Source of the DNA: Thermoanaerobaculia bacterium
GTDB taxonomy: Bacteria > Acidobacteriota > Thermoanaerobaculia > Multivoradales > JAGPDF01
Assembly: GCA_963806165.1 (NCBI GenBank)
Contig: CAWDWZ010000007.1
Coordinates: 1-64,000 of the forward strand
Length of the DNA stretch: 64,000 nt
Direction of reading: 5' to 3'
The translations under genes were made by a program, and so were the position numbers. Positions 34,897 to 61,766 of this stretch are shown in pieces. The notes below the pieces were generated by a model. That model saw only the letters and a list, made by a program, of their open reading frames with translations, made no database searches and had not been told where the DNA came from. Within the stretch, counting starts at the first letter, position 1, and each line of letters begins with the position of its first letter.

Positions 34897-36954
34897 CTAG
34901 GGGTCGAATCGGCTCCAACGGGCGGGCGAGCCGCACTCCAGCCCATCGGCGAACAGGCCCCCGTCGTCGTGGATCGTCAGCGTCACGGTCGCGAGGTTGG
35001 ACTCGATCTTGCCGTCCCAGGCGGCGAAGGTGAAGTGATCGCTGCCGTCGAAGCCGGCGTCGGGATAGAGGAGCGCCTGCGTTCCGACGAGTGCCACTGT
35101 GCCGTGCGCCGGTTGGTCGACGATGCGCAGCGCGAGCGGGTCGCCGTCCGGATCGGTGGCCGAGAGGGCGATCCGCAGCGGAATGGCAGCCGAGGCAGTC
35201 GCCCCTCGCGAGGTCGCGACCGGCGCATGGTCGGTCGTCTGGTTCTCGCTCGAAGGACCGTTGTGGCAGAGGTAGCAACCGATCTTGGCGCCGCGGAAGA
35301 GACTCTTGGCTCCCCAGTTCGTCGTCGCAATCCAGGCGCGCTGCGAAGCCGAGAGCACGGTGCCGCGCGCGTCGCCGCCATGACAGTCGAGGCACGCCGT
35401 GGTGCCATGCGCTTCCGCGTAGTCGGCGTGGTCGCCGACCCAGATCTGTCCGAGCGGATGCAGACCGTGCGGGCCGGCCAGGCCCGGGCTCACCGCGGCG
35501 TGGCAGCTCAAGCACTCGGTGAGCATGCCGACATGCCCCTGGACGAGAATGCTCTGCACGTTGTCGTTCTCGTGGCTCGAGGGGAAGATGGCGTGGGTCG
35601 AGCCGTGGCAGGCCTCGCAGGCCAGTCCGCCGTGACCGAACGAGAAGCGGTAGAGATCGAAACCGGCGGCCGGAACGTCGGGTTGGGTGGCGAAGATCGG
35701 ATCGACCGGGTCGCGCGGCAGGCCGTCGGCGGTGAAGACGGTGGTGTAGCGGATCTCACCGGCGTTCGCGACCGCGGTGCCGGTGTGGCAGTTCTGGCAG
35801 GTCGGCTGGTCGAGCCAGCCGATGCGGCTCGGCGCTCCGACTGCCGCCATGCCGCCGTGGCAGCTCTGGCACTGCATCGCCGGCAGGCCGTCCGCGCCGA
35901 TCGCCTTGCCCATCGCGCCGCGCAGGCAGCGCGTGGTCGATCCGGGGTGGCAGCGATAGCAGGCACTGCGCAGGCTCGACGAGCCGAGGGCGAGGCCGGA
36001 GACGGGGTCCGTGACGGTGGCGTGGAGAGTATGCACCGCCGTGGTCAGCTGGGTGAGATCGACGAGGCCGGAGCCGGGCAGCGCGTTCGACGGATGGCAG
36101 GCCGCGCAGAGCACCGCGCGGCCTCCGGCGACCGTCGCTTCGAGGCCCGCGGGATTGAAGCCGTTGTGCGCCAGCGCGTCGACGAAGACGGGATTGCCGA
36201 TCTGCTGCTCGTCGTGAAAGCGGAGGATGTTGCGCCGGTAATCGCGCTGCGGATCGGCGTCGAACACCCAGCCGCCTGCGGGGCGCGCCGCGTCCGACGA
36301 GCCCGACGCGTGACAGGCCGAACAGTCCATCTCGTCGGAGACGGGCAGGACGATGCGGGTCTCGGCGAGGAGCGCTGCGCCGTCCCGGGCGACGATGCGC
36401 ATCATCGGATAGGAGTTGCGGGCTTCGAGATCGTCGATCGGAGTCAGCGGGATTCCTTCCGCGCTGAACCAGGCGGAGGCGCTGCTGAAGGTCATCGGCT
36501 GCGGCGTGTTCGCCGCGCCGGGCATGTCGTGTCCGGCGAGGCCCTGGTCGGGGGAGAGGGGGAGGCCGAAGAAATCGGCGACGTAGTCCCAGAAGTTCGT
36601 CTTGCCGACCGAGCTGCGATTGATCGATCCGGCGGGATCGGCGACGGCCTCGTAGGTCACGATCACGCTGCCGGGAACGGTGACGAGCTGACCCGACGGA
36701 TCGATCAGCTGGGCGTGGATCGTGTTGAAGGGCGGCAGGATGGCGAAGGTCGAAAAATCGGCGTCGAGGCAGTGCATTCCAAGATCGTTCCAGGCGATGA
36801 GCCGCCAGGCGGATTCGGGCGTCGAAGCGCGCCCGGAAGCGGCTGTCGGAGCGAGCCCGAAGGAAGCGATCAGAGAGAGCAGGACCAGGGGGAGGAGTGT
36901 GGCCGGGAAACGCCGGAGGAGATAGGAGTCTGAATCGCGGTATAGGACTCTCAT
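34897..36954 (-). CDS. Secreted multiheme c-type cytochrome (about 9 CxxCH motifs) with a C-terminal beta-sandwich and the shared LFADGLE.G...WS tail
   Basis: CSACH, CAACH, CYRCH, CQSCH, CQNCH, CEACH, CLSCH, CLDCH, CYLCH. N-terminal signal/TM. C-terminus ...GLFADGLECGSPARWSRFDP. Confidence 0.75.
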   Translation of the reverse strand: MRVLYRDSDSYLLRRFPATLLPLVLLSLIASFGLAPTAASGRASTPESAWRLIAWNDLGMHCLDADFSTFAILPPFNTIHAQLIDPSGQLVTVPGSVIVTYEAVADPAGSINRSSVGKTNFWDYVADFFGLPLSPDQGLAGHDMPGAANTPQPMTFSSASAWFSAEGIPLTPIDDLEARNSYPMMRIVARDGAALLAETRIVLPVSDEMDCSACHASGSSDAARPAGGWVFDADPQRDYRRNILRFHDEQQIGNPVFVDALAHNGFNPAGLEATVAGGRAVLCAACHPSNALPGSGLVDLTQLTTAVHTLHATVTDPVSGLALGSSSLRSACYRCHPGSTTRCLRGAMGKAIGADGLPAMQCQSCHGGMAAVGAPSRIGWLDQPTCQNCHTGTAVANAGEIRYTTVFTADGLPRDPVDPIFATQPDVPAAGFDLYRFSFGHGGLACEACHGSTHAIFPSSHENDNVQSILVQGHVGMLTECLSCHAAVSPGLAGPHGLHPLGQIWVGDHADYAEAHGTTACLDCHGGDARGTVLSASQRAWIATTNWGAKSLFRGAKIGCYLCHNGPSSENQTTDHAPVATSRGATASAAIPLRIALSATDPDGDPLALRIVDQPAHGTVALVGTQALLYPDAGFDGSDHFTFAAWDGKIESNLATVTLTIHDDGGLFADGLECGSPARWSRFDP

Positions 36955-37156
36955 GCCTTTCCCTTACGCGCATCTCTGGGCGGCGGAAAGAGCTGTTAGG
37001 GTAGGTGGCGAGCTGCCCGTTCGCGCAGGTCGACGAGCGATCGAACTGACATTCAAACGCTCCCGGTGGCGCCTGACGGCCGGCCGATGGCATTCCTCGT
37101 GCACGCCCTCTCCGCAGTCAGGTTCGCAGCGTCCCGAGAGTCGACGGAGGCACCGC

Positions 37157-37570
37157 ATGCACAGTCCCAGTTTCATCGCAAAGTGGACGACCTACGGTCC
37201 GCAGCTCCGGAGCGTATTGCGGATCGTGGCGGCGTTGCTCTTCGTGCAGTTCGGCACGATGAAGCTCTTCGCCTTTCCGGTCGGGCTGCCGCCGAACGGC
37301 GGCACCGCGACCTTCCTCACCCAGGTCTGGTTCGGCGGCGTGCTCGAGCTCGTGGGCGGCGGACTGCTCCTGGTGGGACTCTTCACCCGCCCGGTCGCCT
37401 TCGTTCTGGCGGGGGAGATGGCGGTCGCCTACTTCCAGTTCCACGCGCCGAAAGGCCCCTGGCCGCTCGTGAACGGCGGGGTCGCGGCGATCGTCTTCTG
37501 CTTCCTCTGGCTCTACTTTTCGGCCGCCGGCGCGGGCCCGTGGAGCCTCGACGCCCGGCGCGGGCGCTAG
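37157..37570 (+). CDS. DoxX-family membrane protein
   Basis: MHSPSFIAKWTTYGPQLRSVLRIVAALLFVQFGTMKLFAFP... typical DoxX. Confidence 0.6.
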   Translation: MHSPSFIAKWTTYGPQLRSVLRIVAALLFVQFGTMKLFAFPVGLPPNGGTATFLTQVWFGGVLELVGGGLLLVGLFTRPVAFVLAGEMAVAYFQFHAPKGPWPLVNGGVAAIVFCFLWLYFSAAGAGPWSLDARRGR

Positions 37571-37589
37571 GCCCGGCTCTCCTGCGCCC

Positions 37590-39018
37590 CTAGGGCACCT
37601 GGACCGTCCAGGCGTCGGTCGTGCCGCCCTCGAAGCCGTCCAGGAAGAGGATGAACGGCAACGGGGCACCGTCGGCCTCGACGGCGCCGATGTCGCAGCC
37701 GTCGGCGGTGTCGGGAATGAGCGGGTTGTCGACCGGACGGCGGTTGGTCGCGATCGCGCCGTAGCCGCGCTGATCGCGGCGGTCGTCCGGGCACTCCCCG
37801 TGGTCGACGAGAAGACTGCCCGGCGAGGGGGCGTGGGTTCGCGTGGGGCCGCCGTTGTCGGCGAGCAGATCGAGGCCGGCGACGACCGGCGCGGCTCGGC
37901 TGCCGACCCAGTCGTCGTTGGCGTTGGGCGCGCCGGTGGGAAAGAAGGCATCGGCACCGTCGCGGACACCGATCAGGTTGAGACCTTGCGACAGAATCGC
38001 GGAGCTCGCGTTGACCGAGAGGTCGCTCGGCAGCGCGCTGCCGAAATTGTTGCCGATCACGCTGTTGTGCAGGTTCACCGTCGAGGGAGAAAGGATATCG
38101 GCGACGAGGTAGAGACCGCCGCCGAGCTCTCCGGTATCGTCCAGGTTCACGTCGGCACTGTTTTGAGTGATGGTCGTGCTGTCGATCAGAACCGTGCCAT
38201 AGATCACGATCACGCCGCCCGCGGCATCCTCCGCGCTGTTGCCGCTCACGGTCGAGCGCCGGATCTCGCCGTTCGTCCAGCCGAAGACCACCCCGCCGCC
38301 CGCCCCCTCGTTCACCACGTTGTTTCCGGAGATCGTCGAATCCAAGATGCGCAGGAAGGCGGTGGGCGCGCCGCCGGGCGTCACGATTGCGGGCCCGCCT
38401 TCGCCGAGCAAGTAGATTCCGCCTCCGCTCCGGCTGACGTTGTTGTCGACGGCGCTGCGCACGAGCGTGATCGCGGCGGCATGATCGCCGTAGATCGCCC
38501 CGCCGGTGGAAAGGGACTCGCAGGCCGTGATGCGGCTGTCGAAGACCTCGAGGAAGTCGCTTTCGTGGATCGTGATGCAGCCACCGCCGCCCGAGTGCAG
38601 CCCGTTGCGGATGGTCAGGCGCTCGAGGCTGCAGCAGCTTGCCGTTCGGCGCGCCGTTCAGCACCAGCACGCGGTGATCGGCGCCGTTCAGGGTGAGCGC
38701 GCCGGTGAGTGGCCCGGAGATCGTCAGGTTCTGCGTGATGATCGGCAGGTCCGAGCCGAGGACGATCGCGCCGGTGAGATCGAACGTCACGACGTCGTCG
38801 CCGCTCCCGGCGGGGCAGCCCAGGTGCGCGAGGTCGTCGTTCGCGGCCTGGATCGCCTCCCGGAGGGAGCACAGGCCGTCGTCGGCGTCGGTGTCGGAGA
38901 GCGTGTCGACGGCGATCGTCGCCGCCGTGAGAGGCGCCGGGAGGGCGAGGTGCAGCGCCGCGAGGGTCGGGAGCGCGAAAGCGCAGAGAGCGATGGGAGT
39001 GAACCTGGAAAGGGGCAT
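37590..39018 (-). pseudogene. Secreted right-handed beta-helix protein with N-terminal CSLREAIQAAN motif and shared C-terminal LFLDGFEGG..W tail; one frameshift near 38640
   Basis: N-terminal frame from 39018 (MPLSRFTPIALCAFALPTLA...DGLCSLREAIQAANDD...). Switches near 38640 to the frame giving ...LERLTIRNGLHSGGGGCITIHESDF...RSAVDNNVSRSGGGIY... and ends ...PLPFILFLDGFEGGTTDAWTVQVP. Confidence 0.6.
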
Positions 39019-39180
39019 GAGAGTCTCCTTTCCTCAAGTGGCGACAATCGTGCCCGAATCTGGACATGGGAGCTCGCGGTTCGCCGGCGGGGGCTACCGA
39101 GACCCGGCCGCGAGGCCTTAGGATGGGTTGGCTCACCTGGGCTCAGGTCCCAAGAGAGAAAGCGAAGAGGAGATCGAGAG

Positions 39181-40131
39181 ATGGCGGACAAGAAGATCAT
39201 CGCGGTGGTCGGCGCCACGGGCGCGCAGGGCGGCGGACTGGTGCGGGCGATTCTGGCGGACAAGGGGAGCGAGTTCGCGGTGCGGGCGATCACCCGCAAG
39301 CCCGACTCGGACAAGGGAAAGGCGCTCGCCGCGGCGGGCGTCGAGGTGGTGGCGGGGGACGCCGACGCTCCGGCGACGCTCGCCGGCGCATTCGCCGGCG
39401 CCCACGGGGCCTTCGTGGTGACGAACTTCTGGGAGCATCTCTCCGCCGAGCGCGAGCTCGCGCAGGCGACCGCGATGGCGCGCGCCACGCGCAGCGCGGG
39501 GGTGGAGCATGTCGTCTGGTCGACCCTCGAGGACACGCGCAAGTGGATTCCGCTCGCCGATCCGCGGGTGCCGACGCTGCACGGCAAGTACAAAGTGGAG
39601 CACTTCGACGCCAAGGGCGAAGCCGACGCCGTCTTCGCCGCCGAGGCGGCGCCGACGAGCTACCTCGTGACCTCGTTCTACTGGGACAACTTCATCCACT
39701 TCGGCATGGGTCCGCGCCGCGGCGAGAACGGCAAGCTCGGCATCGCCTGGGCGGCCGGTGGCGCGCCGTTGCCCGGTATCGCGGTGGACGACATCGGCGC
39801 TTGCGCCTACGGGGTCTTCAAGAAGGGAGCGGGCGTCGCCGGGAAGCGCTACGGGATCTGTGGCGAGGTCCTCACCGGGCAGCAGATGGCGGCGGGAATG
39901 GCCAAACATCTCGGCGAGCCGGTGAGCTTCACCGACGTGCCGTTCGAGGTCTACCGCAACCTCGGCTTCCCGGGCGCCGAAGACATGAGCAACATGTTCC
40001 AGGTCCAGTCGATCTTCTCCAAGGAGTTCCTGGCCAACCGCAGCGTGAAGCTCGCACGGTCCCTCCATCCCGGCCTGCAGAACTTCGACACCTGGCTGAC
40101 CCGAAACATCAAGAGGATCCCGATCGGCTAA
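39181..40131 (+). CDS. NmrA-family NAD(P)-binding protein
   Basis: MADKKIIAVVGATGAQGGGLVRAIL Rossmann start. NmrA-like length and pattern. Confidence 0.7.
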   Translation: MADKKIIAVVGATGAQGGGLVRAILADKGSEFAVRAITRKPDSDKGKALAAAGVEVVAGDADAPATLAGAFAGAHGAFVVTNFWEHLSAERELAQATAMARATRSAGVEHVVWSTLEDTRKWIPLADPRVPTLHGKYKVEHFDAKGEADAVFAAEAAPTSYLVTSFYWDNFIHFGMGPRRGENGKLGIAWAAGGAPLPGIAVDDIGACAYGVFKKGAGVAGKRYGICGEVLTGQQMAAGMAKHLGEPVSFTDVPFEVYRNLGFPGAEDMSNMFQVQSIFSKEFLANRSVKLARSLHPGLQNFDTWLTRNIKRIPIG

Positions 40132-40433
40132 CTAGATTCGCGAGCGCGCCGCCACGCCTTCGGTTGCCATGGGATCCCCTCCGTTCGGTCGGGACCCCGG
40201 TCGATCTCATCTTTCTCTTGCGGACAGGGGCCCCACCACCCAGGCGGGCAGTGGAGACGCCCACTCATGCGGGCGGTTGCGCGGTGGGATGGCACAGGCA
40301 CCATATGAAGTGGAGGTCGCGGAGCTCGCGGTCGCGCGCTCCGGCGCCGGGTTGAACCTCCAGCCGAAGATCGCCACCGAAGGCCTCTCGTTCCGGCGTC
40401 GCGGGTCTCCCTCCGTGGCGGGGGAGACCTCTG

Positions 40434-41657
40434 ATGCAGTTCTTCCGCGTTCTCGCTTCGCTTGCCCTCGCTGCTCTCGTCGCCTCGCCGCTCTCCGCGG
40501 TGACGCGACGCATGTTCATCTCTTCGGTCACAGGTAACGGGAATCTCTCCACCTGGGCCGACGCAGGGGGTTTGACCGGACTCGAAGCCGCCGACGCCGT
40601 CTGCCAGGCGCGCGCCACCGCGGCGAGCCTGCCCAACGCGTCGGGCTACCGGGCCTGGCTCTCCGACTCGGTCGACGACGCCTACTGCCGGATGCACAAC
40701 CTCGCTGGCACGCGAGAGACGAACTGTGGTCAGGCGACGCTTCCGGACACCGCGGGCCCGTGGTGGCGCACCGACGGCAAGCCGTTTGGCGCCGGACTTC
40801 CCGACCTCGTAGCCCCGCTCGAGCAGGTGCTCCTTCCGCCCTCGGTGAACGAGTTCGGCGTCGACTTGCAGATCGCCCAAACCTGGACCGCGACGAAACT
40901 GGACGGCGCCGTGGGCCCGGGTTCTTGCGCCAACTGGACCTCGGCGGCGCCTGCGGATCTGGCGCACTTCGGATTGGCCTACGACACGTCCGGCAGCTGG
41001 ACCTTCGCCGGAACTTCGGGCTGCTCGGATTGGAATCTCCGCCTCTACTGTTTCGAAACCGGTCTCGGGGATCCCCTGCCGATTTTCCCGCCTTGGGGGC
41101 GCCTGGCCTTCGCGACCTCTGCGGAGGGTACAGGCGACCTGAGCTCCTGGCCCGGCGCGGCCGGCGCGACCGGACTCGCAGCGGGTGACGCGATCTGCCG
41201 GAACCTCGCTTCGGCGGCGGGCCTCCGGCAGTCCGCCTCATTCAAGGCCTGGCTCTCAGCGGAAGGCACGAATGCGATCGGCCGCTTCCAGCATGACGGA
41301 CCATGGATGAGGCTCGACGGCATCGTGGTCGCGGAGAGCCGCCTGGACCTGACCGACGGCGATCTCGACTCGCCGATCAACCTGACCGAGACCGGGCTGT
41401 ACGTGGGCGGTGCCGGAATCTGGACCGGCACTCTGATGGACGGGTCGTTCGCTCCGACGAACTGCTCCAACTGGATCTCGACGACCGCGACGGGGGAAAT
41501 CGGAGTGGCGAACAATTCCCTCCTCGCGTGGACCTCCAATGGCAGCCTCACCTGTGGCTTCGCCTACGCCAGCCTCTATTGCCTGCAGGACTTGCCGCTC
41601 ATTTTCCTCGACGGCTTCGAGAGCCAGGGGACGCGGGCGTGGTCGACCGTGCAGTGA
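40434..41657 (+). CDS. Secreted protein with two DUF1554-like domains and the shared C-terminal tail (LPLIFLDGFESQGTRAWSTVQ)
   Basis: Signal peptide MQFFRVLASLALAALVASPLSA. RMFISS...GNGNL.TW..AGGL.GLEAADAVC...YRAWLS...LYCFE, repeated. Confidence 0.6.
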   Translation: MQFFRVLASLALAALVASPLSAVTRRMFISSVTGNGNLSTWADAGGLTGLEAADAVCQARATAASLPNASGYRAWLSDSVDDAYCRMHNLAGTRETNCGQATLPDTAGPWWRTDGKPFGAGLPDLVAPLEQVLLPPSVNEFGVDLQIAQTWTATKLDGAVGPGSCANWTSAAPADLAHFGLAYDTSGSWTFAGTSGCSDWNLRLYCFETGLGDPLPIFPPWGRLAFATSAEGTGDLSSWPGAAGATGLAAGDAICRNLASAAGLRQSASFKAWLSAEGTNAIGRFQHDGPWMRLDGIVVAESRLDLTDGDLDSPINLTETGLYVGGAGIWTGTLMDGSFAPTNCSNWISTTATGEIGVANNSLLAWTSNGSLTCGFAYASLYCLQDLPLIFLDGFESQGTRAWSTVQ

Positions 41658-41762: not shown

Positions 41763-42389
41763 GTGGTCCACTTGCGAACTTCGCTGCTCAGCCTTCTCGC
41801 CGTGCTCGGCTGCGCGGGTGCGTCGTCGGCGCAGAATCTGCTGACGATCAACCCGGACTTCGACAGCGGCCTCGGCCTGACCTCGTGGCAGACTGCCTGG
41901 GGCTCTTGGGTCCTGGGAGCCGACTCGGGGAGCTGCCTGCTCTCGGAGTCCGCGGCGGGCACGTCGGCGGATTCGGGTGGGACCCAGATCATCGGGCTGG
42001 TCTCGGAGCAGTGCATTCCGCTCGATCCGGTAGCGACGCCCACGCTCTTCATGGGAGCCCTCTACAGGTCCTCGGCGAACGTCTACACGCGCTTCTATCT
42101 GCAGTTCTTCTCCGACGGCACCTGCACGACGTTCGACAGTTGGAGCGCCTGGGCGTTCGGCTCCATTTCACCGAACTGGAATTCGATCCTGGGCGCGATC
42201 CCGATCCCGGCGACGGCTCTGTCCGCGAAGGTCTGGAACGACGTCATCCCCGCCTCGGCCTCGGAGCCGCAGTTCACCGCCTCGTTGGATCGGATCTATC
42301 TCGGCGTGCTGCCGTGGATCTTCGTCGACGGCTTCGAGGCCGAGAGCGGCAGCGCCTGCCACTGGTCGAGCATCGTCGGCGGGATCTGA
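41763..42389 (+). CDS. Secreted hypothetical protein ending in the shared tail (LPWIFVDGFEAESGSACHWSSIV)
   Basis: Signal peptide MVHLRTSLLSLLAVLGCAGASSA. No recognised domain. Confidence 0.5.
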   Translation: MVHLRTSLLSLLAVLGCAGASSAQNLLTINPDFDSGLGLTSWQTAWGSWVLGADSGSCLLSESAAGTSADSGGTQIIGLVSEQCIPLDPVATPTLFMGALYRSSANVYTRFYLQFFSDGTCTTFDSWSAWAFGSISPNWNSILGAIPIPATALSAKVWNDVIPASASEPQFTASLDRIYLGVLPWIFVDGFEAESGSACHWSSIVGGI

Positions 42390-42432
42390 GAAGCGCGGGA
42401 TCAGCGAACGCTGGACTTTCCCGGCGCTCTTT

Positions 42433-48961: not shown

Positions 48962-50223
48962 ATGAGCAACCCGAAGAGATGGGCGATCGCGGCGTTCATC
49001 ACGATCGCGGTGGTGGCGGTTTTCGGCCTGTACTATCCGCGCCCGCAGGCGACTTCCGTCGCCGGCACGATGGGTGGGGTGGAGAAGGCCGAGCGCTACC
49101 GGACAGCGCAGATCGCCAAGGGAGACGTCGGTCTCGAGAACCCGGAAGTCCACAATCTGCTCCAGAACGAGGAGGTCCAGCGCCTCTTCGCGGACGACAC
49201 GTTCCGCAAGGCGCTGGCCAGCCCCGCCATCCAGGCGGCGCTTGCCAACCCGGCGCTGCAGGCGGCGCTCGCCAATCCGGCGGTAGCGGCGGCGCTGGCC
49301 AACCCGGCGCTGCAGGCGGCGCTCGCGAATCCGGCAGCTGCGGCAGCGTTGTCAAGTCCGGCGCTGCAGTCCGCGCTCGCCAGTCCGGCGGCCGCGGCGG
49401 CACTCTCGAGCTCGGCGATGCACTCTGCGCTCGCCAGTCCGGCGATGCAGTCGGCTCTCGCCAGCCCGACGATGCGGGCCGCGTTGGCGCAGCCGGCGGT
49501 GGCGGCGGGGCTCGCCAGCCCGGCATTGCAGCTGCGTTGGCCAGTCCGGCAATCGCCGCGGCGCTCTCCAGCCCGGCGCTCCAGTCCGCTCTGGCGCAGC
49601 CCGCCATGCAGGCCGCGCTCGCCGATCCGGCGTTCCAATCCGCCCTGGCACAGCCGGCGATGCGGTCCGCGCTCTCGAGCCCGGCGCTCGCCGAGGCTCT
49701 GGCGAGCCCGGCGCTCAAAGCGGAGCTGGTCAGTCCGACCTCCAAGCCGCGCTGGCGAGCCCGGCCCTCCAGGCCGCTCTCGCCAACCCGGCGCTCGCAA
49801 GGGCGCTGGCCAATCCGGCGCTGGCCTCGGCCCTAGCGCAGCCTGCTTTCGCGGCGGCTCTGGCGCAGCCGGCGGTGGCTTCCGCGCTCACCCAGCCGGC
49901 CATGCAGGCCGCACTCGCTCAGCCGGCGCTCGCGGCCGCCCTCGCCCAGCCGGCGGTGGCGGCGGGGTTGGCCAGTCCGGCGCTCTCGGCGGCTCTGGCG
50001 CAGCCGGCGATGGCAGCGGCTCTCGCCAGTCCGGCGATGTGGGCGGCGTTGGCGCAACCCGCCCTGTCGGCGGCGCTCGCCAACCCGGCGCTGCAAGCCG
50101 CGCTGGCGAGTCCGGCGATGCGGTCGGCGCTGGCGCAGCCGGCGATGCAGCAGGGGCTCGCGTCGGCGCTGCTCATGCCGGCGATCCAAGCCAATGCCAT
50201 GCGATCGGATCTGGCGAAACAGT
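48962..50223 (+). pseudogene. Membrane-anchored protein made of ~40 tandem 9-aa repeats (L-A-x-P-A-x-Q-x-A; 27-bp DNA repeats), 2 frameshifts
   Basis: N-terminal TM helix (WAIAAFITIAVVAVFGLYY). Repeats LANPALQAA / LASPAMQSA / LAQPAVAAG read in frame 1 to ~49540, frame 2 to ~49745, frame 3 to 50223. Confidence 0.55.
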
Positions 50224-50331
50224 GAATCGGCCGGGCGTCCCGGCGATGCCGGCGGGCCCGTCGCTGGTGGCGGGCCCGCCGGCGGTTTCTTCGCCGTTCG
50301 AGTGGACAACTGGCCGCGACCGAGTTGGCTG

Positions 50332-53103
50332 ATGGAAGGCTTCGCGGCACGGCGCATTGCTGGGTGGACTGCTAGGACTGCGCTGGCCACGCTGGCTTCG
50401 CTGGCAACGCTGACCGCTTCTCCGGCGGAAGGCCAGCTGAAGGCGCTGCGCACCGAAGAGCTCCAACTGGTCTACTACGGCACCCTGCGTTATCTCGTGC
50501 CGCACGTCGCGCGCTGCTTCGAGAATGCGCTGGAGTTTCATCGCCAGACCTTCGGCTGGACGCCTTCGGAGCCGGTCTCCGTTCTCCTCCACGACTTCTA
50601 CGATCACGGCAACGCCGCCGCTTCGAGCGTGCCTTCGAACTACGTGCTCGCGGCGGTGGCGCCGTTCAGCTACGCCTTCGAGATCATCCCCGGGAACGAG
50701 CATCTCAACTGGATGCTCAACCACGAGCTGGTTCACGTCCTGGCGAGCGACATGGCGGCCGGCCGGGACGTGACGGCGCGCCGGCTCTTTCGCGGCAAGG
50801 TCTACCCGAGCCAGGAGCAACCGCTGTCGATGGTCTGGAGTTATCTGACCTCGCCGCGCCTCTACTCGCCGCGCTGGTACCACGAGGGCATCGCCAGCTT
50901 CATGGAAACCTGGATGGCGGGTGGACTGGGCGCGCCCAGAGCGCCTACGACGAGATGGCGTTTCGCACGATGGTCTGCGACGACAAGCCGATCCACGACC
51001 TGCTCGGATTCGAGACCGCAGCCACGACCGTCGACTTTCAGGTCGGCGCCAATGCCTATCTCTATGGCACTCGCTTCATGAGCCACCTCGCGCTCCGATA
51101 CGGGCCCGAGAAGCTCATCGCCTGGGTCGCGCGCACCGAGGGCAGCGCGCCCTTCTACTCGCGGCGCTTCGAGCAGCTGTTCGGCCTGCCGCTGGAGAAG
51201 GCCTGGGCGGAGTGGATCGCCGCCGAGTCGGAGTTCCAGCGCGCCAACCTCGAGCGTCTGCGCCAGAACCCGATCACCGCGGCGCAGCCGGTCGGCGATC
51301 GGCCGCTCGGGTCGGTGTCGCGGCCGGCCCTGGATCGCGTCGCGGGGGCGGTCTACCTCGGCGTCAGCTACCCGGGGCAGGTCGCGCATCTGGCGCGGCT
51401 CGATCTCGCGAGCGGCAAGCTCACCAAGCTCGTTGACCTCAAGGGCGCGGCGCTTTTCGGGGTGACCTCGATCGCGCTCGACCCGGAAGCGAAGCGGCTC
51501 TTTTTCGTCACCGACAACAACGACCTGCGGGATCTGAACGCTCTCGACCTCGCTACCGGCAAGGTCCGCAAGCTGCAGGTAGATGCGCGCGTCGGCGATC
51601 TCGCCTTCGATGCCACGACCCGCGAGCTCTGGGGCGTGCGCCACTACAACGGCATCTCGACCCTGGTGCGGATTCCGGCGCCTTACACCGAGTGGAAGCA
51701 GGTGGACTCGTTTCCGTACGGAACGGACATCTATTCGCCCGACATCTCGCCCGACGGCAAACGCCTGGCTGCGTCGCTCACCTTCGTCGACGGCAGCCAG
51801 GCGCTGGCGCTGTTCGATATCGAGAAGCTCCGTGCGGTGACGCCGGCTACGAAGCGATCGCCGAGCTCGGGAGCTCGTCGCCGGCCGACTTCGTCTTCTC
51901 GTCCGACGGCGCCTTTCTCTACGGCTCCTCTTACTATTCGGGGGTCTCGAACCTTCTACCGCTACCGCTTCGCGGACGGCGAGCTCGAGCCGCTCACCAA
52001 CGCCGACAGCGGTTTCTTCCGGCCGGTGCCGCTCGACGACCAGACGCTCTTCGCGCTGCGCTACACTGGGGAGGGGTTCGAGCCCGTCACCCTTCCCATC
52101 CGCCCGGTTTCGTCGCTGCGCTCGATCGAGTTCCTGGGCACGGCGGTGGCCGAGAAGTGGCCGATCGTCCGCAGCTGGAACATCGGCTCGCCGGCCGAGA
52201 TCGACCTCGCGGCGAAGACGCGCTACGACGGCGATTTCTCGATTCTCGGCTCGGTGGGCCTGTCGTCGGTCTACCCGATCGTCGAGGGCTACAAGGACGC
52301 CGTCGCGGCCGGGGTGCACTTCGACCTTCGCGATCCGCTGAGCCTGTCGCAGCTCGGGCTGTCGCTCTCGTACTCGCCGGACTCCGCGCTCGCGGCGGCG
52401 GAGCGCTGGCACGCCCTGGCCGAGCTGCGCTACCTCGACTGGCGGGCGCACGCGAGCTTCAATCGCGCCGACTTCTACGATCTCTTCGGGCCCGCCGAGA
52501 GCGGCCGCAAGGGCTACGCGCTCGGCCTCGAATACGTTCATACCCTTATCCTCGACGAGCCAAATCGACGGCTCGACGTTCGCGCGGCGCGACGGGTTAC
52601 GGCGATCTCGACACCCTGCCGGGCTTCCAGAACGTCCCCTCGCCCGCCAGCGACCTGGTCGAGCTCTCCGCTGGCCTCGATTACAAATCGGTGCGTGCCT
52701 CGCTCGGCGCGATCGAGCCCGAGGAGGGCGTCGAGCTGACGCTCGGCGGCGGCGATCGATTGGTCGCCGGCGAGCACTTCCCGCTGGCGCACTTCGACTT
52801 CGCGCGCGGCCTCGCCCTGCCGCTCGACCACTGCTCGCTCTGGCTGCGACAGCACGATCGGCGGCGCTCGAGGTGACCGCGAGAGCCCGTCGGAAACGTC
52901 TACTTCGGCGGCTTCCGCAACAACTGCGTCGGACGACGGGCCTACCGGAGTTACCGCGATCCGCTGGCCTTCCCGGGCTTCGAGATCGACCAGATCAAGG
53001 CCCACAGCTTCGGCAAGGCGATCGTCGAGCGGAACCTGCCGCCGCTGCGGCTGCGCCTCGGCAATCCGACGCTGTACGCCAACTCGATCGACGTCGCTTT
53101 CTG
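50332..53103 (+). pseudogene. Large (~920 aa) multidomain protein with an HExxH (HELVH) region and TolB-like beta-propeller repeats; >=5 frameshifts; may continue past 53103
   Basis: Segments alternate between frames: MEGFAARR...WMLNHELVHVLASD...; ...YDEMAFRTMVCDDKPI...; ...YSPDISPDGKRLAASLTFVDGSQALALFD...; ...RYRFADGELEPLTNADSGFF...; ...GNVYFGGFRNNCVGRRAYRSYRDPLAFPGFEIDQIKAH... Confidence 0.5.
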
Positions 53104-53399
53104 AGGGCGCGCTGATCGCTGATCCCGACCAGGGCGGCAGCGGCGGAGCAGACCACGGACGGCATCGAGATCGACGCCTGGTTCACCCTGCTCACCGACT
53201 TGGAGCTGACCCTGGCTCGCGCGCCGCCGCGGCCAGCGGAGCGGCGAACGTCGAGCGACGGATCGTCGTGCTGCTGCGTGCTGCCGCTGTGGTCCCCGCC
53301 TCGACGCGCGAGCCTGGAGGTTGGCGCGAAGCCCGGTTGAAAGGCATCGGCACACAGGCGTTCGCGTCCCGTCGATTCTCCGCGCGCCTCAGGCGGCGT

Positions 53400-56300
53400 G
53401 GCGGCTGTGTCGGACGACAAGGCAGACCGGGCGCGAGCGCGGCCGAGGATCTCGATGAGCGAGTCGACGCTGAAGCGGTCGATCTTGCGCCCGTGTGAAA
53501 TCGCTGATCGGCGGCTGCGGTAACGGCTGCAGGAGCTGGGCAGCCGCAGCCTGGGTCGGCTCTCGCGCTGCCGACAGGCGGGAAGGCTGGATCATCGGGA
53601 TCGGCGCGGATCTTCAATTCTGCGCCTTCTCAGCGAGAACCCGAGATCGGCGAAGATCATCGTCCGCTCGAAGGGCGGAATCTGGACGACATCGACTCCT
53701 CCCTTCCACTGCAGCGACGTGCTCGAGCTCCTTCAGCGGGAGCGCGCCGAGCTCAGTCGGCAGCCCAGGTCTTTCGGTCTTCTTCGCGAAGCGCATGCAG
53801 GCATGGACGGCTTCCCGAAACCTGGCCACGTAGAGCGCGCGATGCTGCAGTCGCGTCTGAATCCGGATTCTCCACTACGCCTGCGCTGATCGACGGCATC
53901 AGTTTCCAATCGGACCAGACGCAGACCCTGCTGGACCTCTTGGAGCTGATATCCGGACGCCCGCGGCGCGTCCTCAGGACGCTCGCGCAGGTCGGAAAGC
54001 GAGCTGCGGACCGACGTGAGGGGGCGAAGCACCACGGAAGGACGACACACCTGTTTGTATAGATCCTCGACCCTCCGCCAGGTCGCCCGCCTGCCGGAGC
54101 CGCTGCGTCGTTAGGCAGGTAGCGGACGCCTGACCCAGCGCGAGGAACGGAGGGCTTCGCCCGGAGGCCTCGAACCTGGCGCCGCTCAGGACTCGACGCG
54201 CGAGCCGACCTCGAAGCGGCGCGGGGTTTGCGACTGCGTGCGGTCGCTGAACGCGGAGCTGCTGAAGCCGTGGATGTTCTCGCAGACGGCGATCGTCCGC
54301 TCGCTGTCGAGAATGTTGGCGACCGAGCCGATCAACGCGACTCCGATCTGCCGAAGTCAAGATGGCGGGCGAGCGAGAGGTCGAGCTGGTAGTCGCTGTT
54401 GGCGCGCCGGCTGCTGCGTGCCGAGAAACGCTCGGCCGCCATAACTTCGAACAGAGGCCTCGGCTTGCGCGTAGGGGAACGGCGACGACCAGAAGAACGT
54501 TGACGCTGACGAAGTTCGGCCGCAAAAGGGTAGCGACGAAGTCGACCCGGCCGGCGCGTGTCGCCGATGCGGCAGCCGTAGCGCTCGACGCAGAGCTCGG
54601 GCAGACGTCGAAGTTGGCGTTGGTGCCGAGCGTGCCGATCAGATGGCCTTGGGAATCGACCAGGCGCACGACGCCAGCAGCCAGAGCCAGTCGGTGGCGC
54701 GGGATCCAGCTTCAGGATCGCGGCTGCAACTTGTGCCGAAGACCAGGGAGTTGGAAACGATGTAGAGGAGCAGGAACCGTCGTCGCGCGGTCAGGCGCCG
54801 AGGTTGCCGGAGCCGCCCCGAAGAAGCTCCGGGACCTCTCTGTCCACGTACCACAGCTTCATCGAGGTTCGCCGCGCGACTGCGCTCACAACCGACTATC
54901 AGCTCGTTGGCATAGGGGTGGATCCAGGCCGGCGGCGATCCGGGTCTGGCTCAGCCGAAGACGTCGGACGGGCGAGCGACCAGCCATTGGGTCCGAACCG
55001 TCCGGACCGGTGATCCAGGGCTGGCCGAGCTGGTCGGCCACACTTGTGGGGCGAGGTGACGCCGAGAATGTCGAGCAGGAGCCACACTGCGAGAGAGAGA
55101 AACCGACGCGCGCGTAGTCGGGCAAGCGCGGTCGTGGCCGTGAATGCAGCTGGTCGATGAGGCTGAAAGCACCCCGGCGTCACCGGTCAGTATCTGAGGC
55201 CAGGCCGAGCCGCTGAAGGAGAGGTCGGCGATGGCGGTGCGGTGACGCCGAGGTGACCTGGTCGTAGCGGGCGCCGATCTTAGAGTCAGGTTGGCCGGAC
55301 CTTCCAGCGAGGCTGCAAGCAGACGGACCGTCTTGCCGGTCGAGGCGAACTCCTGATCGCAGGTGTCAATCATTAATACGGTCAGCGACGATCAACTGTC
55401 CTCGGTACAGCGTCCGAGGTGAAGTCGTAGTAGAAGCCGCCGGCCAGGGCGAAGTCGCGCCGCCGGTAGCTGAAGATCGCTGTGCCGATGCTCGATGACG
55501 ATGCGCCGGCGAAGTCGTCGATGAACCAGGAGAGGTCGGCCGTACTGGTCGCGGTCGCGGCTGGAATAGTAGATCGAGAGCGTTCAGGAAGTGCTCAACT
55601 GCTGACATCATTGTAGTGTCCGCCGCGTCGAAGTTGCTGCTCTGGCTGGTAGACATTGTAGTCGATCCGGTTGATGCCGATGCCGAGGTTCCAGAGCAGG
55701 TCGCGCGCAGCACGCCGCTCGCGCCGCCGAACAATGGCGCCGCTGAGCTTGGAGCCGTAGGTCGATCCAGCCGACGAACTGATGGCGTTCGAGTCGTCGT
55801 GTCACGGATCGGCGAACGACTTGCGGGTCAGGCGCGAGCGAGGCGCGGCCTGCCAGGTTGAGCCTGCCAGGTAGGCGGTGGTGGCGTTCTCGCTGTGAAG
55901 TTGTCGCGCAGAGGATGCGTTGAACGCGAGTTGTAGATATTCATAGGCGGCGAAAGAACGAGTTGATCGTGATGATCGGGCCGCCGAGGCGGCGGATCGA
56001 ACCACTTCGTCGGTATCGTGATTGAAACGGTCGCTGTTCTGGGTGATCCAGCTTGAGCAAGCGGTGTCGAAAAGCTGCCCGAGAACTCGTTGCCGCCGGA
56101 CTTGGTGACGATGTTGACGACCCCGCCGATGGCGCCGCGCAACTCGGGCTGAAGTCTGTCTGGAGCGACACTTGAATTGTGTCGAACGGCAGATCGGTAG
56201 CCGAGTCGCCGGCCGCTGGGTCGGTGGTGTTCATGCCGTCGATCAGGAAGCGTTGCGGTAGATCGACGATCCGGTACCAGCGAGTCTCAGCGAAGCCCAA

Positions 56301-56900
56301 GGTCGATACCGCCGCCATGTCCAGCATGCTTCCATAGTCGCGCCAGTCGCGGCAAGCGCTGCACCTTCGAGGAACTCCGAACTCAAACGTCTGCGCGGCC
56401 GAACCGCGCCGGATCGACCATGGCTGTCAGGACCGTCATCTCTTCGGCGAAACTGTGAGTGCATCCCGACGTCGAGCTGGGTGGCGGCGGTCGAGGTGGG
56501 ACTGGACTTCGTCGCGCTCCTGAAACGAAGCCGGAGAGCTCGAACCGACGGCGAACAGCCGGGCGAAGAGGACCGGAATCTGGAAACGCCTTCCGCGTCG
56601 GTGACCAGGATCCTCGATGCCGCCGACGAGTCGGCGACGATACCGTCACTGTCGCTCCGGGCAGCGGTTGCTCTTCGCCCTCCGGACGGCGCTCAGTCGA
56701 ATTCAGCCGGTGGCGACTCGCCACTCCCAGGGTCGCGACGAAAGGCTAAGAACGAAAGCAGCCGCGACTGTTCCATCCTTCGCCGTCGCACCGGCGACGT
56801 TAGCTGCTCGAAGTGGAATCGCTGCGAGTCTGCCTCAAATGACTGGCTGCCGCAGGGAAGCGCCGTCGTTGCGCGGACCCACGTGAGAGCGACGAGCAGG
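53400..56900 (-). pseudogene. Remnants of a TonB-dependent receptor with an N-terminal CarbopepD_reg-like domain; badly fragmented (many frameshifts/stops)
   Basis: Minus-strand fragments: ...PGATVTVS... (carboxypeptidase-regulatory-like), ...RGAIGGVVNIVTKSGGNEFSGS... (end of plug domain), ...RANSDYQLDLSLA... (barrel strand). No frame stays open for more than ~250 codons. Confidence 0.3.
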
Positions 56901-58379
56901 GGGATGAGATCAGTCGCGTCGAGGCGATACTGTTCCGGAAGTGCTGTCAGTCTGGACGGACGGTTCCAGACCTTGCCGCTCAATCGCTGGCGCCGAGGCG
57001 GTGGTACATTGGGCATGGAGCCTTAGCTCCATGAAGCTCACCGCTGGTACCCGTCTGGACCGTACGAAGATTACGGCGCTGTGGCGGGGGAGGTGGTCGG
57101 CGGTCGACGAACCGCGGCTGGCTGGTGATGCCTGGCGATGAAGGTCCTGCTGGAAGCGTTGGCAATGATCTGGAACGGTGGCGGTGCTCCAGCGAGGGGC
57201 GAAAGCAGTTGCTCGCCCTCAACGATCTGAAAGATCGCCACGGTGCACTCAGTCGACGAGATCGGTGGCGCGGCGCTTCTCTAACCATGGAAGTGGTGGA
57301 AGGGAAGACGTGGCTCAGTCATTCTGGGAGCGGGGCGACCGGAGCCGCGCCGCCGAAGGCGATCTGCGACCGACGGCGCCCGCCTCGAACGCGCGCGGAG
57401 TCATCTCGATCCTGAGACTTCAACCTGAGTCACGGTCATCCGCCGAGGGGCGGGGTCAAGGGCGCCGTCGCCCTCGCCAAAACGACGCGGAGAGTGCCCT
57501 GGCGCCGACCCTGACCCCACCCTCACGGCGGGGCGACCTGTGCCGGCCAGATCGGACCCGGCGACATGTCCCCGAGCAGGCCCAGGGCCGCAGCGGTCAA
57601 CCGCGCTCGGACCTCTTCGCTCGGCGGGCACCTGCTTACTCGAGATGGCGACCGGCAGGCGGGCCTGTTCACCGGCGAGAGCCAGGCGGCGGTGATCTCG
57701 GCGATCTGGCGTGACGTGCTCTTCGCTGTCAGCGACGTCAACCGGACCTTGCTGGTTGGCTGGTCGTGCACCGTCCAGCGCCGCCTGCAGAAGGCAGCCG
57801 AGAAGCGCGGCTCACGCTGGAGAGGGACGTACGGGTGCTGCTGGCGCTGCAGGAGGTCGCCGCATCGCCGCGCGCGGCTTTGTGGAAGGAACGACAGCCA
57901 TCGCGGCCGACGCTGGTCGCGGCCGTTGCCGTCGCCAGCCGGCCTGGAATTTTTTTTCGTGCGCGATGGTCCGGCCGCCGAGCCGAAGATCGGCGTTCGT
58001 CGGAAGGTGGAAGAGTTCACCAGGCGGTGGCGCTGATCGCAGGCTTGGTCGCCTCCGCCATACCGATGCCAGAACTCGGTCGAAGTGACTGGGGAGGCCG
58101 ACGGCGATCCATACCTCAGGCGGCCCAGGTTCTGATCGGCGAACAAGGGCTGAATCCTGGAAGCCTGGAACAGCGTCGGCAAGACGCCGCCGAGAAGATC
58201 CGCGTGCCGTTGACCCAGACTCCTCCGGATCGACAGCCCAGGTACGCTTCGGCGATCCTAGATCCGCCCACGATGGAGCGGCACGTCGACATCCATTCGA
58301 AGGAGAGTGTTCCACCGGAAATGATTCCCGAATCCCCTGAGCTCGGTCGGGTCCAGCGTCTTCTTCACCGTCAACACTC

Positions 58380-60416
58380 TTCCGGGAAGCGGGCGCGAAC
58401 TTTGGATCTCCGACGGTACGGCGGGCGGAACCCTGCAGGTCAAGGACATCCGTCCCGGCCAGTTGGGCTCGGCTCCGTTCCTCTTCACGCCGGTCGGTTC
58501 GACGCTTTACTTCGTCGCCAACGACGGCGCCAACGGGAGCGAGCTTTGGAAGTCCGACGGCACCGAAGTCGGTACGGTGATGGTCAAGAACAACCCCCGG
58601 AAGCGCCTCGTCGTCGCCCAGCGACCTGGTGGCGGTCGGCGCGACGCTCTACTTCGTCGCGACCGACGGTACGACCGGGCGCGAGGTCTGGAGATCCGAC
58701 GGTACTCCGGCGGCACCGTTCCGGTCGCCGACCTGGTGCTCGGAGCGGCTTCGAGCTCACCCTCCCGTCTGCTCGCGCTGGGCTCGAATCTCGTTTTGTT
58801 CGCCAACGACGGCGTGCACGGGCTCGAGCCCTGGATCTCTGACGGGAGCGGGCCCGGAACGTCGATGATCTCCGACTTCAACCCCGGCAGCGCCAACGGC
58901 GTGGACGCGACCCTCGTTCCGAGAGTGGTCGGGGGCGCGCTCTATCTGGCGATCGACACCGGTGCGTCGGGGTTCGATCCGTGGGTTTCGGACGGGACCG
59001 TCGGCGGGAGCTCGATAATCGCGGATCTGGCGGTCGGCGAGGGTGACGGCCGATTGCCTTCCTTCGAATCGTTTTCGGCGCCGCTCGGCAGCGGCAGCGA
59101 GTTGGTCTCGATCACGAACGTCGCTGTCTTCCCCGGCTTCGAGCCGGCGACGGGTTGGGAGCTCTGGCGGACCGACGGGACGCCGGCGGGCACGACGCTG
59201 CTCTCCGACCTTCGACCTGGAGCGGCATCCTCGTCCCCTGGCGGCTGACGCGCGTAGGAAACCGCGTCTATTTCTTCGCCAACGACGGCACGAACGGGCA
59301 GGAGCTCTGGGTTACGGACGGAACCGCGTTGGGCACCGTGCTGGTCGCCGATCTCGCCGCTGGTGATCTCGGGTTGAACTATGAGTACCAGCCCCCCTCG
59401 CCCTATTTTCGCGGCAAAGATGCCGTCGGCGCTGTCGACGATCAGCTCCTCTTCATGGCCAACGCGGGTGCGGGGCCGCGTCTGCTGGAATACCGACGGC
59501 ACCCCGGCGGGCACCGCGGCTCTGGCGGCGGCGACCGCCTTCGGGGGCAACTCTGGAATCGGGATCCTCGGCGGCCTCGCCTACTTCCTCGAGAAAGCGC
59601 GCGTCGTTCGATCTGTGGAAATCGGACGGTACTTCCGGCGGGACGACGCTCGCCGTGCCCAACAGCGCTACGCTGGATTTCGGCGGGGAGGGCCCGTTCG
59701 TGCGCGCTGGGCAGCGGCTCTATTTCGATGCCAGTGCCGACATCGGTTCGGGCCTCGACTTCGGATTGCTGACCTCGGACGGAACGGTGGGAGGCACAAC
59801 GGGGGGACGTATCGCTCCCGCGGACACGGAGTATCGCACCGCCTTGGGCGACCGGCTGGTGTTCGCGCACCAGGACGGCACGCACGGTTACGAGCCCTGG
59901 ATCACCGACGGCTCGCCAGGCGGCTCCTCGCTCGTCGCCGACATCCTGCCGGGCCTCGCGAGCTCGTCGCCGCAGTCGTTCATCGAGCTCGGCGGCGTGC
60001 TCTTTTTCGCCGCGGACAACGGCGCGACCGGTGTCGAGCTCTGGCGGACCGACGGCACGGGTCCCGGGACACAACTCTTTCTGGATATCGCCCCGGGAGC
60101 GGCCGACTCGTACCCGCGCTGTCTGACGGAGATCGGCGGCATCCTCTATTTCGCCGCCTACCGGCCCGGCGAGGTGTCGGAGCTCTGGCGAACGGACGGC
60201 ACGGTGGTCGGCACCGAGCTCGTCGCAGATCTCGCGACCGGCGACGGCTCGTCGTCGCCGTGCGGCTTCGCGCGCGTCGGGGACAAAGTGGTCTTCACCG
60301 CCTGGGATGCGACCTTCGGCCGCGAGCTGCGCGTCATCGACGACCTCGGGCAGGTACTTCTTCCGAGCTCCTTCGAAGACGGAACGTTCGGCGACTGGAG
60401 CCTGTTCGTGCAGTAG
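58380..60416 (+). pseudogene. ELWxxDGT-repeat beta-propeller protein with >=6 frameshifts; ends in the shared tail (SSFEDGTFGDWSLFVQ)
   Basis: About 10 repeats of ...L(Y/F)F.A.DG..G.ELW.(S/T)DGT..GT.LV.D(I/L).PG..(S/G)S.P... distributed over ORFs 58463-, 58629-, 59155-, 59381-, 59655-60416. Confidence 0.5.
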
Positions 60417-60566
60417 CTGGAGTCGAGCGAAGTGTCGCTCAGAACTCGAAGCCCTGGCCGACTTCGAAGCGCCGCGGGGTCTGCCACTCAGGGGGATCGG
60501 TGAAGCTGTAGCCGCCGCAGCCGTGAGTGTCTTCGCAGACGCCGACCGCCGTAGATGACCCGGCGC

Positions 60567-61766
60567 CTAGGGCGCCGTTGCTGACCAAGCGCCGAGGTTG
60601 GCGTCCTCGAAGTCGTCGGCGAAGAGAGTTCCCATCCAGAAGGCGCGCACGCGGGTGACGCCGGCGAGGGTGACTTCGAAGGTCCAGCGGCCGGCGGCGC
60701 CGCCGCCGAAGCCGGGGTTGCTCCACGAGACGTAGGCGGCGTTGTACTCCTGGGTCGCGGTGTAGTTGGTGGACTGGTAGGTCGTGCCGTTCGGCCGGCG
60801 GACGACGAAGGCGAGCAGGAAGGCCGGTGTCAGGTCGCGCACGTAGGCGCGGAAGTAGATCGGATCGCCGTTCACGAACAGGCGCTTCTCGTTGGGGGTC
60901 TCCTGCCCCGGGCAGGTCGGAATGATCGGCGCGGCGAAGCCGGTCGACGCATGGTTGATCGTCGGCTGGCGGTAGGCCGGCTGTTGGGCCCAGAGACTCT
61001 CGAGGGTGAGCGTTTCGCAGAGTCCGTCGTAGGGATCGAGCAGCGGCCCCGGGTAGGTCCCCGAGTCGTGGACCTCGAAGTGGAGGTGAGGTCCGGTCGA
61101 CGAGCCGGAGCTCCCGACGATGCCCAGATACTCGCCGGTCACGACCGTCTCGCCGACCTGCTTCGGCGTCACCGAGCCGTTCTTGAAGTGGCCGTAGATC
61201 GCGGTCGATCCGTCCGCATGCTGGATCACGATCAGATTCGCGTTGCCGCCGCCTGCCACGCAGCTGCGGTCGGAGTTGCCATCGTCGCGCACCAGGATCG
61301 TCCCGGGCGCGGCGGCGAGCGCTTGCAGCCGGAAAAGATCCATCGACAGCCAACCGTAGGGCCAGGTGAAGATGTCGGTGCCGTGATGCTGGTCGTAAGT
61401 GCGCGCGCCGCAGTTCCAGTCGAGAATCGGCCCGACTGCGCTGTCCTGATCGACGAACGCCGAAGTTCCCCAGTGCGAGAAGTAGCCGATGCCGGCGCTC
61501 GCGAGCGGCCAGGCGAAGGTCGTGGCGATCCGTGGGTCCGGCAGAGGCAGGAGCCCCGCGGCGGAGAGTCGCGCTCTGGCCGCCTCGATCCGCGCCGCGA
61601 GCTGCGCCTCGTCGGCGGGAGAGAAGCTGTCACGCGGCGCGGCGACCTCGCCGCTCATTGTGAGCTCGAAGGTGTCGGTAGGCTCCGCTTTCTGCGCCAG
61701 CGTCGAGTGCGCGAGTCCCCCGACTCCGAGCAAGAAGAAAATCGCGGTCCGGCGCGGTGCGCGCAT
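60567..61766 (-). CDS. Secreted M23-family (LytM-like) peptidase ending in the shared tail (LFADDFEDANLGAWSATAP)
   Basis: Signal peptide MRAPRRTAIFFLLGVGGLAHSTLA. M23 motifs HHGTDI and GSSGSSTGPHLHFEV. Confidence 0.75.
   Translation of the reverse strand: MRAPRRTAIFFLLGVGGLAHSTLAQKAEPTDTFELTMSGEVAAPRDSFSPADEAQLAARIEAARARLSAAGLLPLPDPRIATTFAWPLASAGIGYFSHWGTSAFVDQDSAVGPILDWNCGARTYDQHHGTDIFTWPYGWLSMDLFRLQALAAAPGTILVRDDGNSDRSCVAGGGNANLIVIQHADGSTAIYGHFKNGSVTPKQVGETVVTGEYLGIVGSSGSSTGPHLHFEVHDSGTYPGPLLDPYDGLCETLTLESLWAQQPAYRQPTINHASTGFAAPIIPTCPGQETPNEKRLFVNGDPIYFRAYVRDLTPAFLLAFVVRRPNGTTYQSTNYTATQEYNAAYVSWSNPGFGGGAAGRWTFEVTLAGVTRVRAFWMGTLFADDFEDANLGAWSATAP

Follow-up and report, generated by a model that had tools for sequence, protein, structure and literature searches.

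The PEP-CTERM, IPTL-CTERM (TIGR04174) and GlyGly-CTERM signals (of the exosortase, archaeosortase and rhombosortase systems) are short C-terminal tags borne by many unrelated Sec-exported proteins per genome; in the first two, a motif is combined with a transmembrane (TM) helix and a basic cluster. The C-terminal domain (CTD) of the type IX secretion system (T9SS; Por_Secre_tail, PF18962) is a soluble C-terminal signal without TM helix, carried by cargo with signal peptides. It is a folded β-sandwich of 70–100 residues, found mainly in Bacteroidota. Dockerins, donor strands and SpyTag-like complementation systems are small modules, mostly C-terminal and sometimes N-terminal or duplicated, which tether diverse secreted enzymes to a partner. 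Finally, jelly-roll domains of the carbohydrate-binding module (CBM) families CBM4, CBM9 and CBM22 (PF02018) and of the ConA-like type (PF14099, LamG) begin with the signature hydrophobic-F-x-(D/N)-G-F-E-x-G-x4-W. The element described here has traits in common with each of these. It is a peptide of about 19 residues, (I/L/V)F-x-DGFE-x6-W-(S/T)-x3-4-stop, that ends six proteins encoded in a 64,000-nucleotide stretch of DNA (the window) from a Thermoanaerobaculia bacterium of the Acidobacteriota (contig CAWDWZ010000007.1 of assembly GCA_963806165.1, positions 1 to 64,000).

All the C-termini on which a preliminary description of the window had based this shared ending were reproduced by translation of the open reading frames (ORFs). 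The copies listed below were scored with a profile hidden Markov model (HMM) of 21 positions built from 26 tails.

34900–34956, minus strand: tail LFADGLECGSPARWSRFDP of a multihaem cytochrome/Big_9 protein (gene 34897–36954; 27.0 bits)
37593–37649, minus strand: tail LFLDGFEGGTTDAWTVQVP of a CSLREA/β-helix/choice-of-anchor-Q protein (gene 37590–39018; 32.4 bits)
41601–41654, plus strand: tail IFLDGFESQGTRAWSTVQ of a DUF1554 protein (gene 40434–41657; 31.5 bits)
42318–42386, plus strand: tail IFVDGFEAESGSACHWSSIVGGI of a small CBM-like jelly-roll protein, called p42389 below (gene 41763–42389; 12 bits)
60357–60413, plus strand: degenerate tail LLPSSFEDGTFGDWSLFVQ (C-terminus SSFEDGTFGDWSLFVQ) of an ELWxxDGT-repeat protein (22.2 bits)
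about 58325 to 60416, plus strand: span of the ELWxxDGT-repeat gene, with several frameshifts
60570–60626, minus strand: tail LFADDFEDANLGAWSATAP of an M23 peptidase (gene 60567–61766; 30.4 bits)
20908–20964, minus strand: seventh copy LFLDGLESGNSCLWSNVVP, N-terminal in the mature protein (gene 19306–21075; 29.1 bits)
30877–32247, minus strand: comparator, a choice-of-anchor-Q paralogue (NF041518, 40.6 bits) with IPTL-CTERM instead of the tail (TIGR04174, 23.2 bits for a cutoff of 20.5)

A six-frame regular-expression search of the window returned six motif matches, of which five are at most 25 codons from a stop; the ELWxxDGT tail is too degenerate for the pattern used. The means expected by chance are 0.07 motif matches and 0.015 matches near a stop, from 200 dinucleotide-preserving simulations. 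Exactly seven matches were obtained with the HMM, at 12–32 bits, and the next best scored 4.8 bits. Six of the seven were already in the training alignment, and the p42389 tail, at 12 bits, was outside it. At the DNA level, the window copies are only 49–74% identical. The six C-terminal copies initially described are thereby confirmed, and a seventh is added that is not C-terminal: it lies about 12 residues past the predicted signal-peptide cleavage site and precedes a Cys-rich region and InlB-B-like repeats rather than a jelly roll.

The carriers are unrelated, as had been proposed. Their Pfam and NCBIfam domains are distinct: multihaem cytochrome with Big_9, right-handed β-helix with choice-of-anchor Q, DUF1554, ELWxxDGT repeats, and Peptidase_M23. 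The β-helix carrier scores 42.7 bits on NF041518 (cutoff 25), a membership that concerns this one carrier and not the tail. The 208-residue p42389 matches no family in Pfam or NCBIfam. Signal peptides had been assigned to all six proteins; four are visible directly and that of the β-helix protein appears once a frameshift is bridged, the N-terminus of the ELWxxDGT protein being unreadable. The frameshift of the β-helix gene is single, near 38628 (38627–38629, minus strand), with the signal peptide and the CSLREA motif in the upstream frame; the public protein call (P0004, 290 residues, on a 1.30-Mb contig) is shortened by the same break. Those of the ELWxxDGT gene are spread over about 58560–59600 (plus strand). 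These breaks are either long-read assembly indels or signs of pseudogenes, and the long-read origin of many tail-bearing metagenome-assembled genomes (MAGs) could be their cause. The tail is kept in related proteins: in orthologues of the cytochrome at 56–57% identity (L162, L181), of the DUF1554 protein at 42% identity (L195), and in an orthologue fragment of the M23 peptidase (P0001). A close orthologue fragment of the ELWxxDGT protein (P0002) retains the degenerate tail, and more distant ELWxxDGT proteins (L214, L205; about 40% identity) end in consensus tails. The cytochrome, DUF1554 and ELWxxDGT orthologues come from the acidobacterial MAGs described below, which places the window in their lineage.

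The distribution of the tail in public genomes was examined with the consensus pattern DGFE[ST]G[DN]T[ST]xW, scanned over one genome per GTDB species. At least 120 loci were found, and the figures that follow are for the matches listed. About 100 of 120 loci are from Acidobacteriota MAGs (Thermoanaerobaculia including Ca. Multivoradales, Holophagae, Sulfomarinibacteraceae), a proportion that is approximate since the pattern is biased towards the consensus. A few are from Polyangiaceae, Gammaproteobacteria, Kangiella and Crocinitomicaceae, and non-terminal copies occur in Actinomycetales, Peribacter and Acanthopleuribacter. The stop codon is found within 20 codons of the Asp in 118 of 132 matches, most often at 16 codons. 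The flanks of the loci contain 17 additional HMM copies that do not match the seed pattern, and all 17 are at most 13 residues from a stop. Within the acidobacterial lineage, the position is strictly C-terminal and the length is fixed. The density in the flanks, around one copy per 50 kb, extrapolates roughly to the order of 100 copies per genome.

The consensus from public genomes is [ILV]-F-x-D-G-F-E-S-G-D-T-S-A-W-S-x-T-V-P-COOH. In a logo built from 128 of the listed tails, Pro and Gly are enriched at positions −7 to −4, and the core is immediately preceded by [ILV] (93%) and Phe (95%). The core D, F, E, G and W are at 100%, which is partly imposed by the selecting pattern, and the second Gly is at 98%. 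In the turn, S is at 82%, D at 84%, T at 95%, S at 77% and A at 65%. The last residue is Pro in 86 of the 128 tails (67%), and the distance from the Asp to the end is 16 residues in 85. Every synonymous codon is used, in genomes of 43–75% GC. Given this codon diversity and the low DNA identity of the window copies, selection acts on the peptide and not on the DNA. The tail is an autonomous module of about 19 residues, a modular peptide rather than a DNA repeat.

The carriers are predicted to be exported: of the 88 in these loci whose 5′ ends are complete, 76 (86%) begin with a signal-peptide-like sequence, and the same crude heuristic gives 129 among 422 control ORFs of these loci. They are also diverse, as 65 of the listed carriers match 44 Pfam families. 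These include S8 subtilases, M14, M28 and trypsin-like peptidases, BNR and sortilin repeats, FG-GAP, β-helices, InhA-MAM, multihaem cytochromes, PAD, GSDH and DUF1554.

Beyond these loci, the motif has other positions. When a DNA pattern for FxDGFExGxxxxW was first scanned over IMG/VR, the distance to the stop was bimodal among the matches listed: either 14–27 codons past the Phe, with unrelated sequences upstream, or above 190 codons, in which case the motif was at the extreme N-terminus, after a signal peptide, or internal. Some IMG/VR matches (L005, L013, L023, L065, L071, L085, L116) are proteins of about 325 residues on phage contigs that start with M-(A/S/G)-R-(I/V)-F-(I/M)-D-G-F-E-x-G, have no signal peptide and often occur as two or three tandem paralogues. 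PHROG annotation places the phage proteins with the N-terminal motif in phrog_6368 and phrog_2448, both families of unknown function.

The HMM was also searched against 1.84 billion representative proteins and matched 4499 at E ≤ 1e-3. A word-indexed homologue search with the tail alignment gave only three matches. Three contexts were distinguished in the best 150 of the 4499. The first is that of large multi-domain proteins in which the motif recurs every 190–300 residues, the last copy being about 185–205 residues before the protein end; in these proteins it forms the first strand pair of the repeating domain. The second consists of about 50 single-copy matches, about 45 of which stop exactly at the last residue of the tail, with the consensus (L/I)IFADGFESGDTSAWSATVP. 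The third comprises small leader-bearing proteins with two tandem copies 21–24 residues apart (four copies in one protein), and stand-alone copies directly after the signal peptide (P0271, P0179). A family of 140–160 residues with a hydrophobic leader and two tandem C-terminal tails (P0145, P0151, P0153, P0158, P0191, P0267) has a conserved core (I/L)(I/L)xxPDGxYPP(S/T)DG. The stand-alone N-terminal copies and the tandem copies indicate that the unit is autonomous. The preliminary description had held that internal occurrence would speak against a tag; such copies do exist, internal or N-terminal in many jelly-roll proteins, so that the motif is not exclusively C-terminal across all sequence data, and the copies in the public loci are predominantly C-terminal, as counted above.

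The motif of the multi-domain proteins aligns with positions 1–40 of PF14099 and 2–46 of PF02018, both below the Pfam threshold. The only match of a profile search of the PDB is the start of both CBM22 modules of 4XUP (residues 12–26 and 173–186). From these alignments, the peptide shares its sequence with the first β-strand pair, the N-terminal hairpin, of jelly rolls of the CBM4/9/22 and ConA-like types. The strand signature F-x-(D/N)-G-F-E-x-G-x4-W is present in the tail, and the complete β-sandwich of about 130–200 residues is not: the tail stops 3–6 residues past the Trp, and no jelly-roll-like ORF was found after the tails among the window ORFs.

Two AlphaFold2 models were considered. 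In that of an intact β-helix orthologue (P0005, 66-sequence alignment), the mean predicted local distance difference test (pLDDT) is 90.9, and the last 23 residues or so are undocked, with values of 58, 50 and 39 by block of ten residues. In that of p42389, a jelly-roll core (residues 42–181), which resembles those of CBM16, CBM61, CBM4-2 and MAM, is confident, and the tail (188–208) is below 50. In both models the tail is thus predicted not to dock onto the fold of its passenger. Packing of the tail in cis is unsupported by these models.

The tail of p42389 is peculiar, with a two-residue insertion and a conserved Cys. It is present in 26 of 26 homologues, with an invariant core (D, F, E, GSAC, W), and one of the four conserved cysteines of the family is within the tail (SGSACHW). 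At the N-terminus of the family, NLLTNPDFDxGxGLxxW is itself a degenerate version of the motif. The window gene is 106 nucleotides downstream of the tail-bearing DUF1554 gene. Synteny around the homologues, this adjacency included, was not conserved; additional tail carriers and an IPTL-CTERM protein are encoded nearby.

The β-helix carrier allowed the tail to be compared with recognised anchors. Its homologues are CSLREA-domain proteins of about 480 residues with signal peptides. For 120 of them, the C-termini were sorted by what follows the CDIGAxE end of choice-of-anchor Q.

65 of 120: full tail
about 10 of 120: core only (e.g. ...IFEDGFES-stop; RIFINGFDGDR-stop in Dokdonella)
15 of 120: no C-terminal addition
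5 of 120: (Y/F)LPxxLK-type ending
2–3 of 120: TM helix and basic cluster, IPTL-like
1 of 120: T9SS Por_Secre_tail
remainder of 120: RTX-like repeats or other extensions

The tail therefore occupies the position of recognised sorting signals, with which it is interchanged among these homologues. The (Y/F)LP(I/L)(I/L)LK ending, followed by 0–3 residues, is a second recurrent occupant of the slot (P0080, P0084, P0102, P0112, P0121). In the window, the ending of the 30877 protein, which had been taken for PEP-CTERM-like, turned out to be IPTL-CTERM behind choice-of-anchor Q, with a TM helix and the terminal RMRRRQT. Two or more C-terminal tag systems therefore coexist in this genome. IPTL-CTERM is likewise found beside the tail system in L242 (11133–12449).

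How, then, does the tail compare with the described systems? Like PEP-CTERM-type signals, it is restricted in lineage and uses the same choice-of-anchor slot, where homologues swap IPTL-CTERM and the tail. It differs by the lack of TM helix and basic cluster (the tails contain no hydrophobic stretch and no Arg/Lys cluster, in agreement with the first account), the lack of any NCBIfam match at E ≤ 10, the additional N-terminal or tandem use, and the lack of a known sortase-like partner. The likeness to the T9SS CTD extends to the cargo (proteases, glycosidase-like and adhesin-like proteins), and one choice-of-anchor-Q homologue has a CTD in place of the tail. However, the module of 19–23 residues is no sandwich of the PF18962 or TIGR04183 type, has no Pfam match and is concentrated in Acidobacteriota. 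Compared with the CBM4/9/22 and ConA-like jelly rolls, the tail is without the remaining 130–200 residues of the sandwich and is borne by non-CBM passengers. The two 22-residue segments of dockerins recall the unit of about 21 residues and its tandem duplication, which is a resemblance only. There is no similarity in sequence or model, none of the tails or carriers matching the Pfam dockerin model with its paired EF-hand-like Ca2+ loops; a receptor of the cohesin-like or incomplete-fold kind was not identified, and a dockerin-like mode of binding is purely inferential. Type I secretion with RTX does not fit either, as the carriers have Sec-type signal peptides and those of the window have no RTX repeats.

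No named model for the tail was found when whole proteins, isolated tails and consensus-type carriers were compared with Pfam and NCBIfam, nor any description in open-access text. The tag is uncatalogued within Pfam, NCBIfam, PDB sequences and open-access text, as was suspected from the start.

The reading that we favour, to which we give about an even chance, is that of a post-Sec tag for sorting or cell-surface retention, read in trans, most likely by β-strand augmentation. In Acidobacteriota of the classes Thermoanaerobaculia and Holophagae, the module is joined through a Pro/Gly-rich linker to Sec-exported proteins of many unrelated families. After export by Sec, the hairpin would dock on a receptor in the way expected of the opening hairpin of a jelly roll, like a miniature dockerin or donor strand. 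Membrane insertion and transpeptidation would not be involved, unlike in PEP-CTERM or LPXTG systems. Several observations weigh against this proposal. In a Holophagae MAG (L213), the module immediately precedes ALFGDGPLVNGMLLVLMVAGAAVMRLKER and the stop, a TM helix with a basic anchor at the C-terminus, so that the module need not itself be the terminal signal. No partner, protease or transporter gene was found beside the carriers, either in the window or in 0.9 Mb of the at least 120 loci. The tail of p42389, never lost and with a conserved Cys, may be integrated covalently in the fold through a disulfide. Lastly, low pLDDT of a 20-residue tail in the models is weak evidence for the absence of docking onto the passenger.

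The first alternative, which we regard as unlikely, is a cleavable C-terminal secretion signal that would be recognised in the periplasm by a dedicated outer-membrane translocon and removed upon export of the cargo, as with the T9SS CTD. It would account well for the strict C-terminal position, the fixed length and end, the Pro/Gly linker before the tail, the resemblance of the cargo to that of the T9SS (proteases, glycosidase-like repeats, adhesin-like β-helices) and the alternation of the tail with the T9SS CTD and IPTL-CTERM in homologues. It is less easily reconciled with intact copies at the N-terminus of mature proteins, in tandem or upstream of a TM anchor. With 19 residues, the tail is also far below the size of any known folded domain recognised by a translocon, and neither the window nor the at least 120 loci showed any candidate machinery. 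Docking is favoured over a translocon signal because of the jelly-roll-hairpin origin, the N-terminal and tandem use, and the TM-anchored case of the Holophagae MAG.

Somewhat more doubtful is a self-contained mini-motif that would need no protein receptor, either binding glycans or Ca2+ and sticking to the cell's own polysaccharide or lipopolysaccharide, or capping the protein and shielding its C-terminus. The derivation from a CBM sequence and the invariant acidic (D/E) and aromatic (F/F/W) residues are consistent with binding, the terminal Pro could hinder carboxypeptidases, and the positions of the copies suggest that the motif works at either terminus and in tandem. However, the binding cleft of CBMs is formed by the remainder of the sandwich beyond the first two strands, and is lacking in a two-strand fragment; extreme conservation of its sequence over more than 40 families of carriers also points to a partner macromolecule that is specific.

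That the tail is no feature of its own, and consists of remnants of jelly rolls cut by stops or assembly errors, or of a DNA-level repeat, is very improbable: the motif is identical to the start of genuine jelly-roll domains and frameshifts do exist in the window assembly, but the codon diversity and the fixed end point effectively refute such an artefact, and the tail is kept in orthologues at 40–80% identity, is present in hundreds of independent assemblies, and is not followed by jelly-roll-like ORFs in the window.

Docking of a sorting or retention tag may be imagined in a more specific form, which we put forward as a speculation with a rather low chance of being right. In such a natural split jelly roll, the detached first strand pair would complete, or strand-exchange into, a cell-surface receptor, and thereby organise, with neither membrane anchor nor sortase, the exoenzymes, cytochromes and adhesins of a cell, roughly a hundred in all.

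Beside the window carriers lie genes with regulatory and housekeeping roles. They encode a TPR-repeat Ser/Thr kinase, two phosphatases of the GAF-PP2C type, an extracytoplasmic function (ECF) sigma factor, a fragment of PrsW, a Peptidase_MA_2 protein, and NmrA, DoxX and POR proteins. When 1335 ORFs from the at least 120 loci were clustered, the only recurrent neighbours were generic ones (kinases, ECF sigma factors, sulfatases). Elsewhere in the window, a tRNA-Leu(GAG) is encoded at 8974–9046, and an ORF at 48962–50332 (plus strand) contains a long repeat of low complexity (…PALQAALANPAVAAALANP…) and matches no family convincingly. Positions 1–1700 have a GC content of 0.38–0.55, well under that of the remainder of the window, and the third-position GC gives no clear frame signal over 53100–57300 (53.1–57.3 kb). 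Both regions are candidates for non-coding, degraded or foreign DNA.

Bacteria of the classes Thermoanaerobaculia and Holophagae abound in soil and sediment, and most are uncultured. With about 100 tagged proteins per genome, by rough extrapolation, the tag defines a predicted exoproteome, and it bears on how these bacteria place their proteases, their glycan-active proteins and their extracellular multihaem cytochromes on the cell or outside it. For annotators, it is a new C-terminal domain model to build. An autonomous tag of 19 residues may also find use in protein engineering. The hairpin link to carbohydrate-binding modules suggests the evolution of a domain fragment into a sorting or docking tag, and the tag points to a missing recognition or secretion component of these bacteria.

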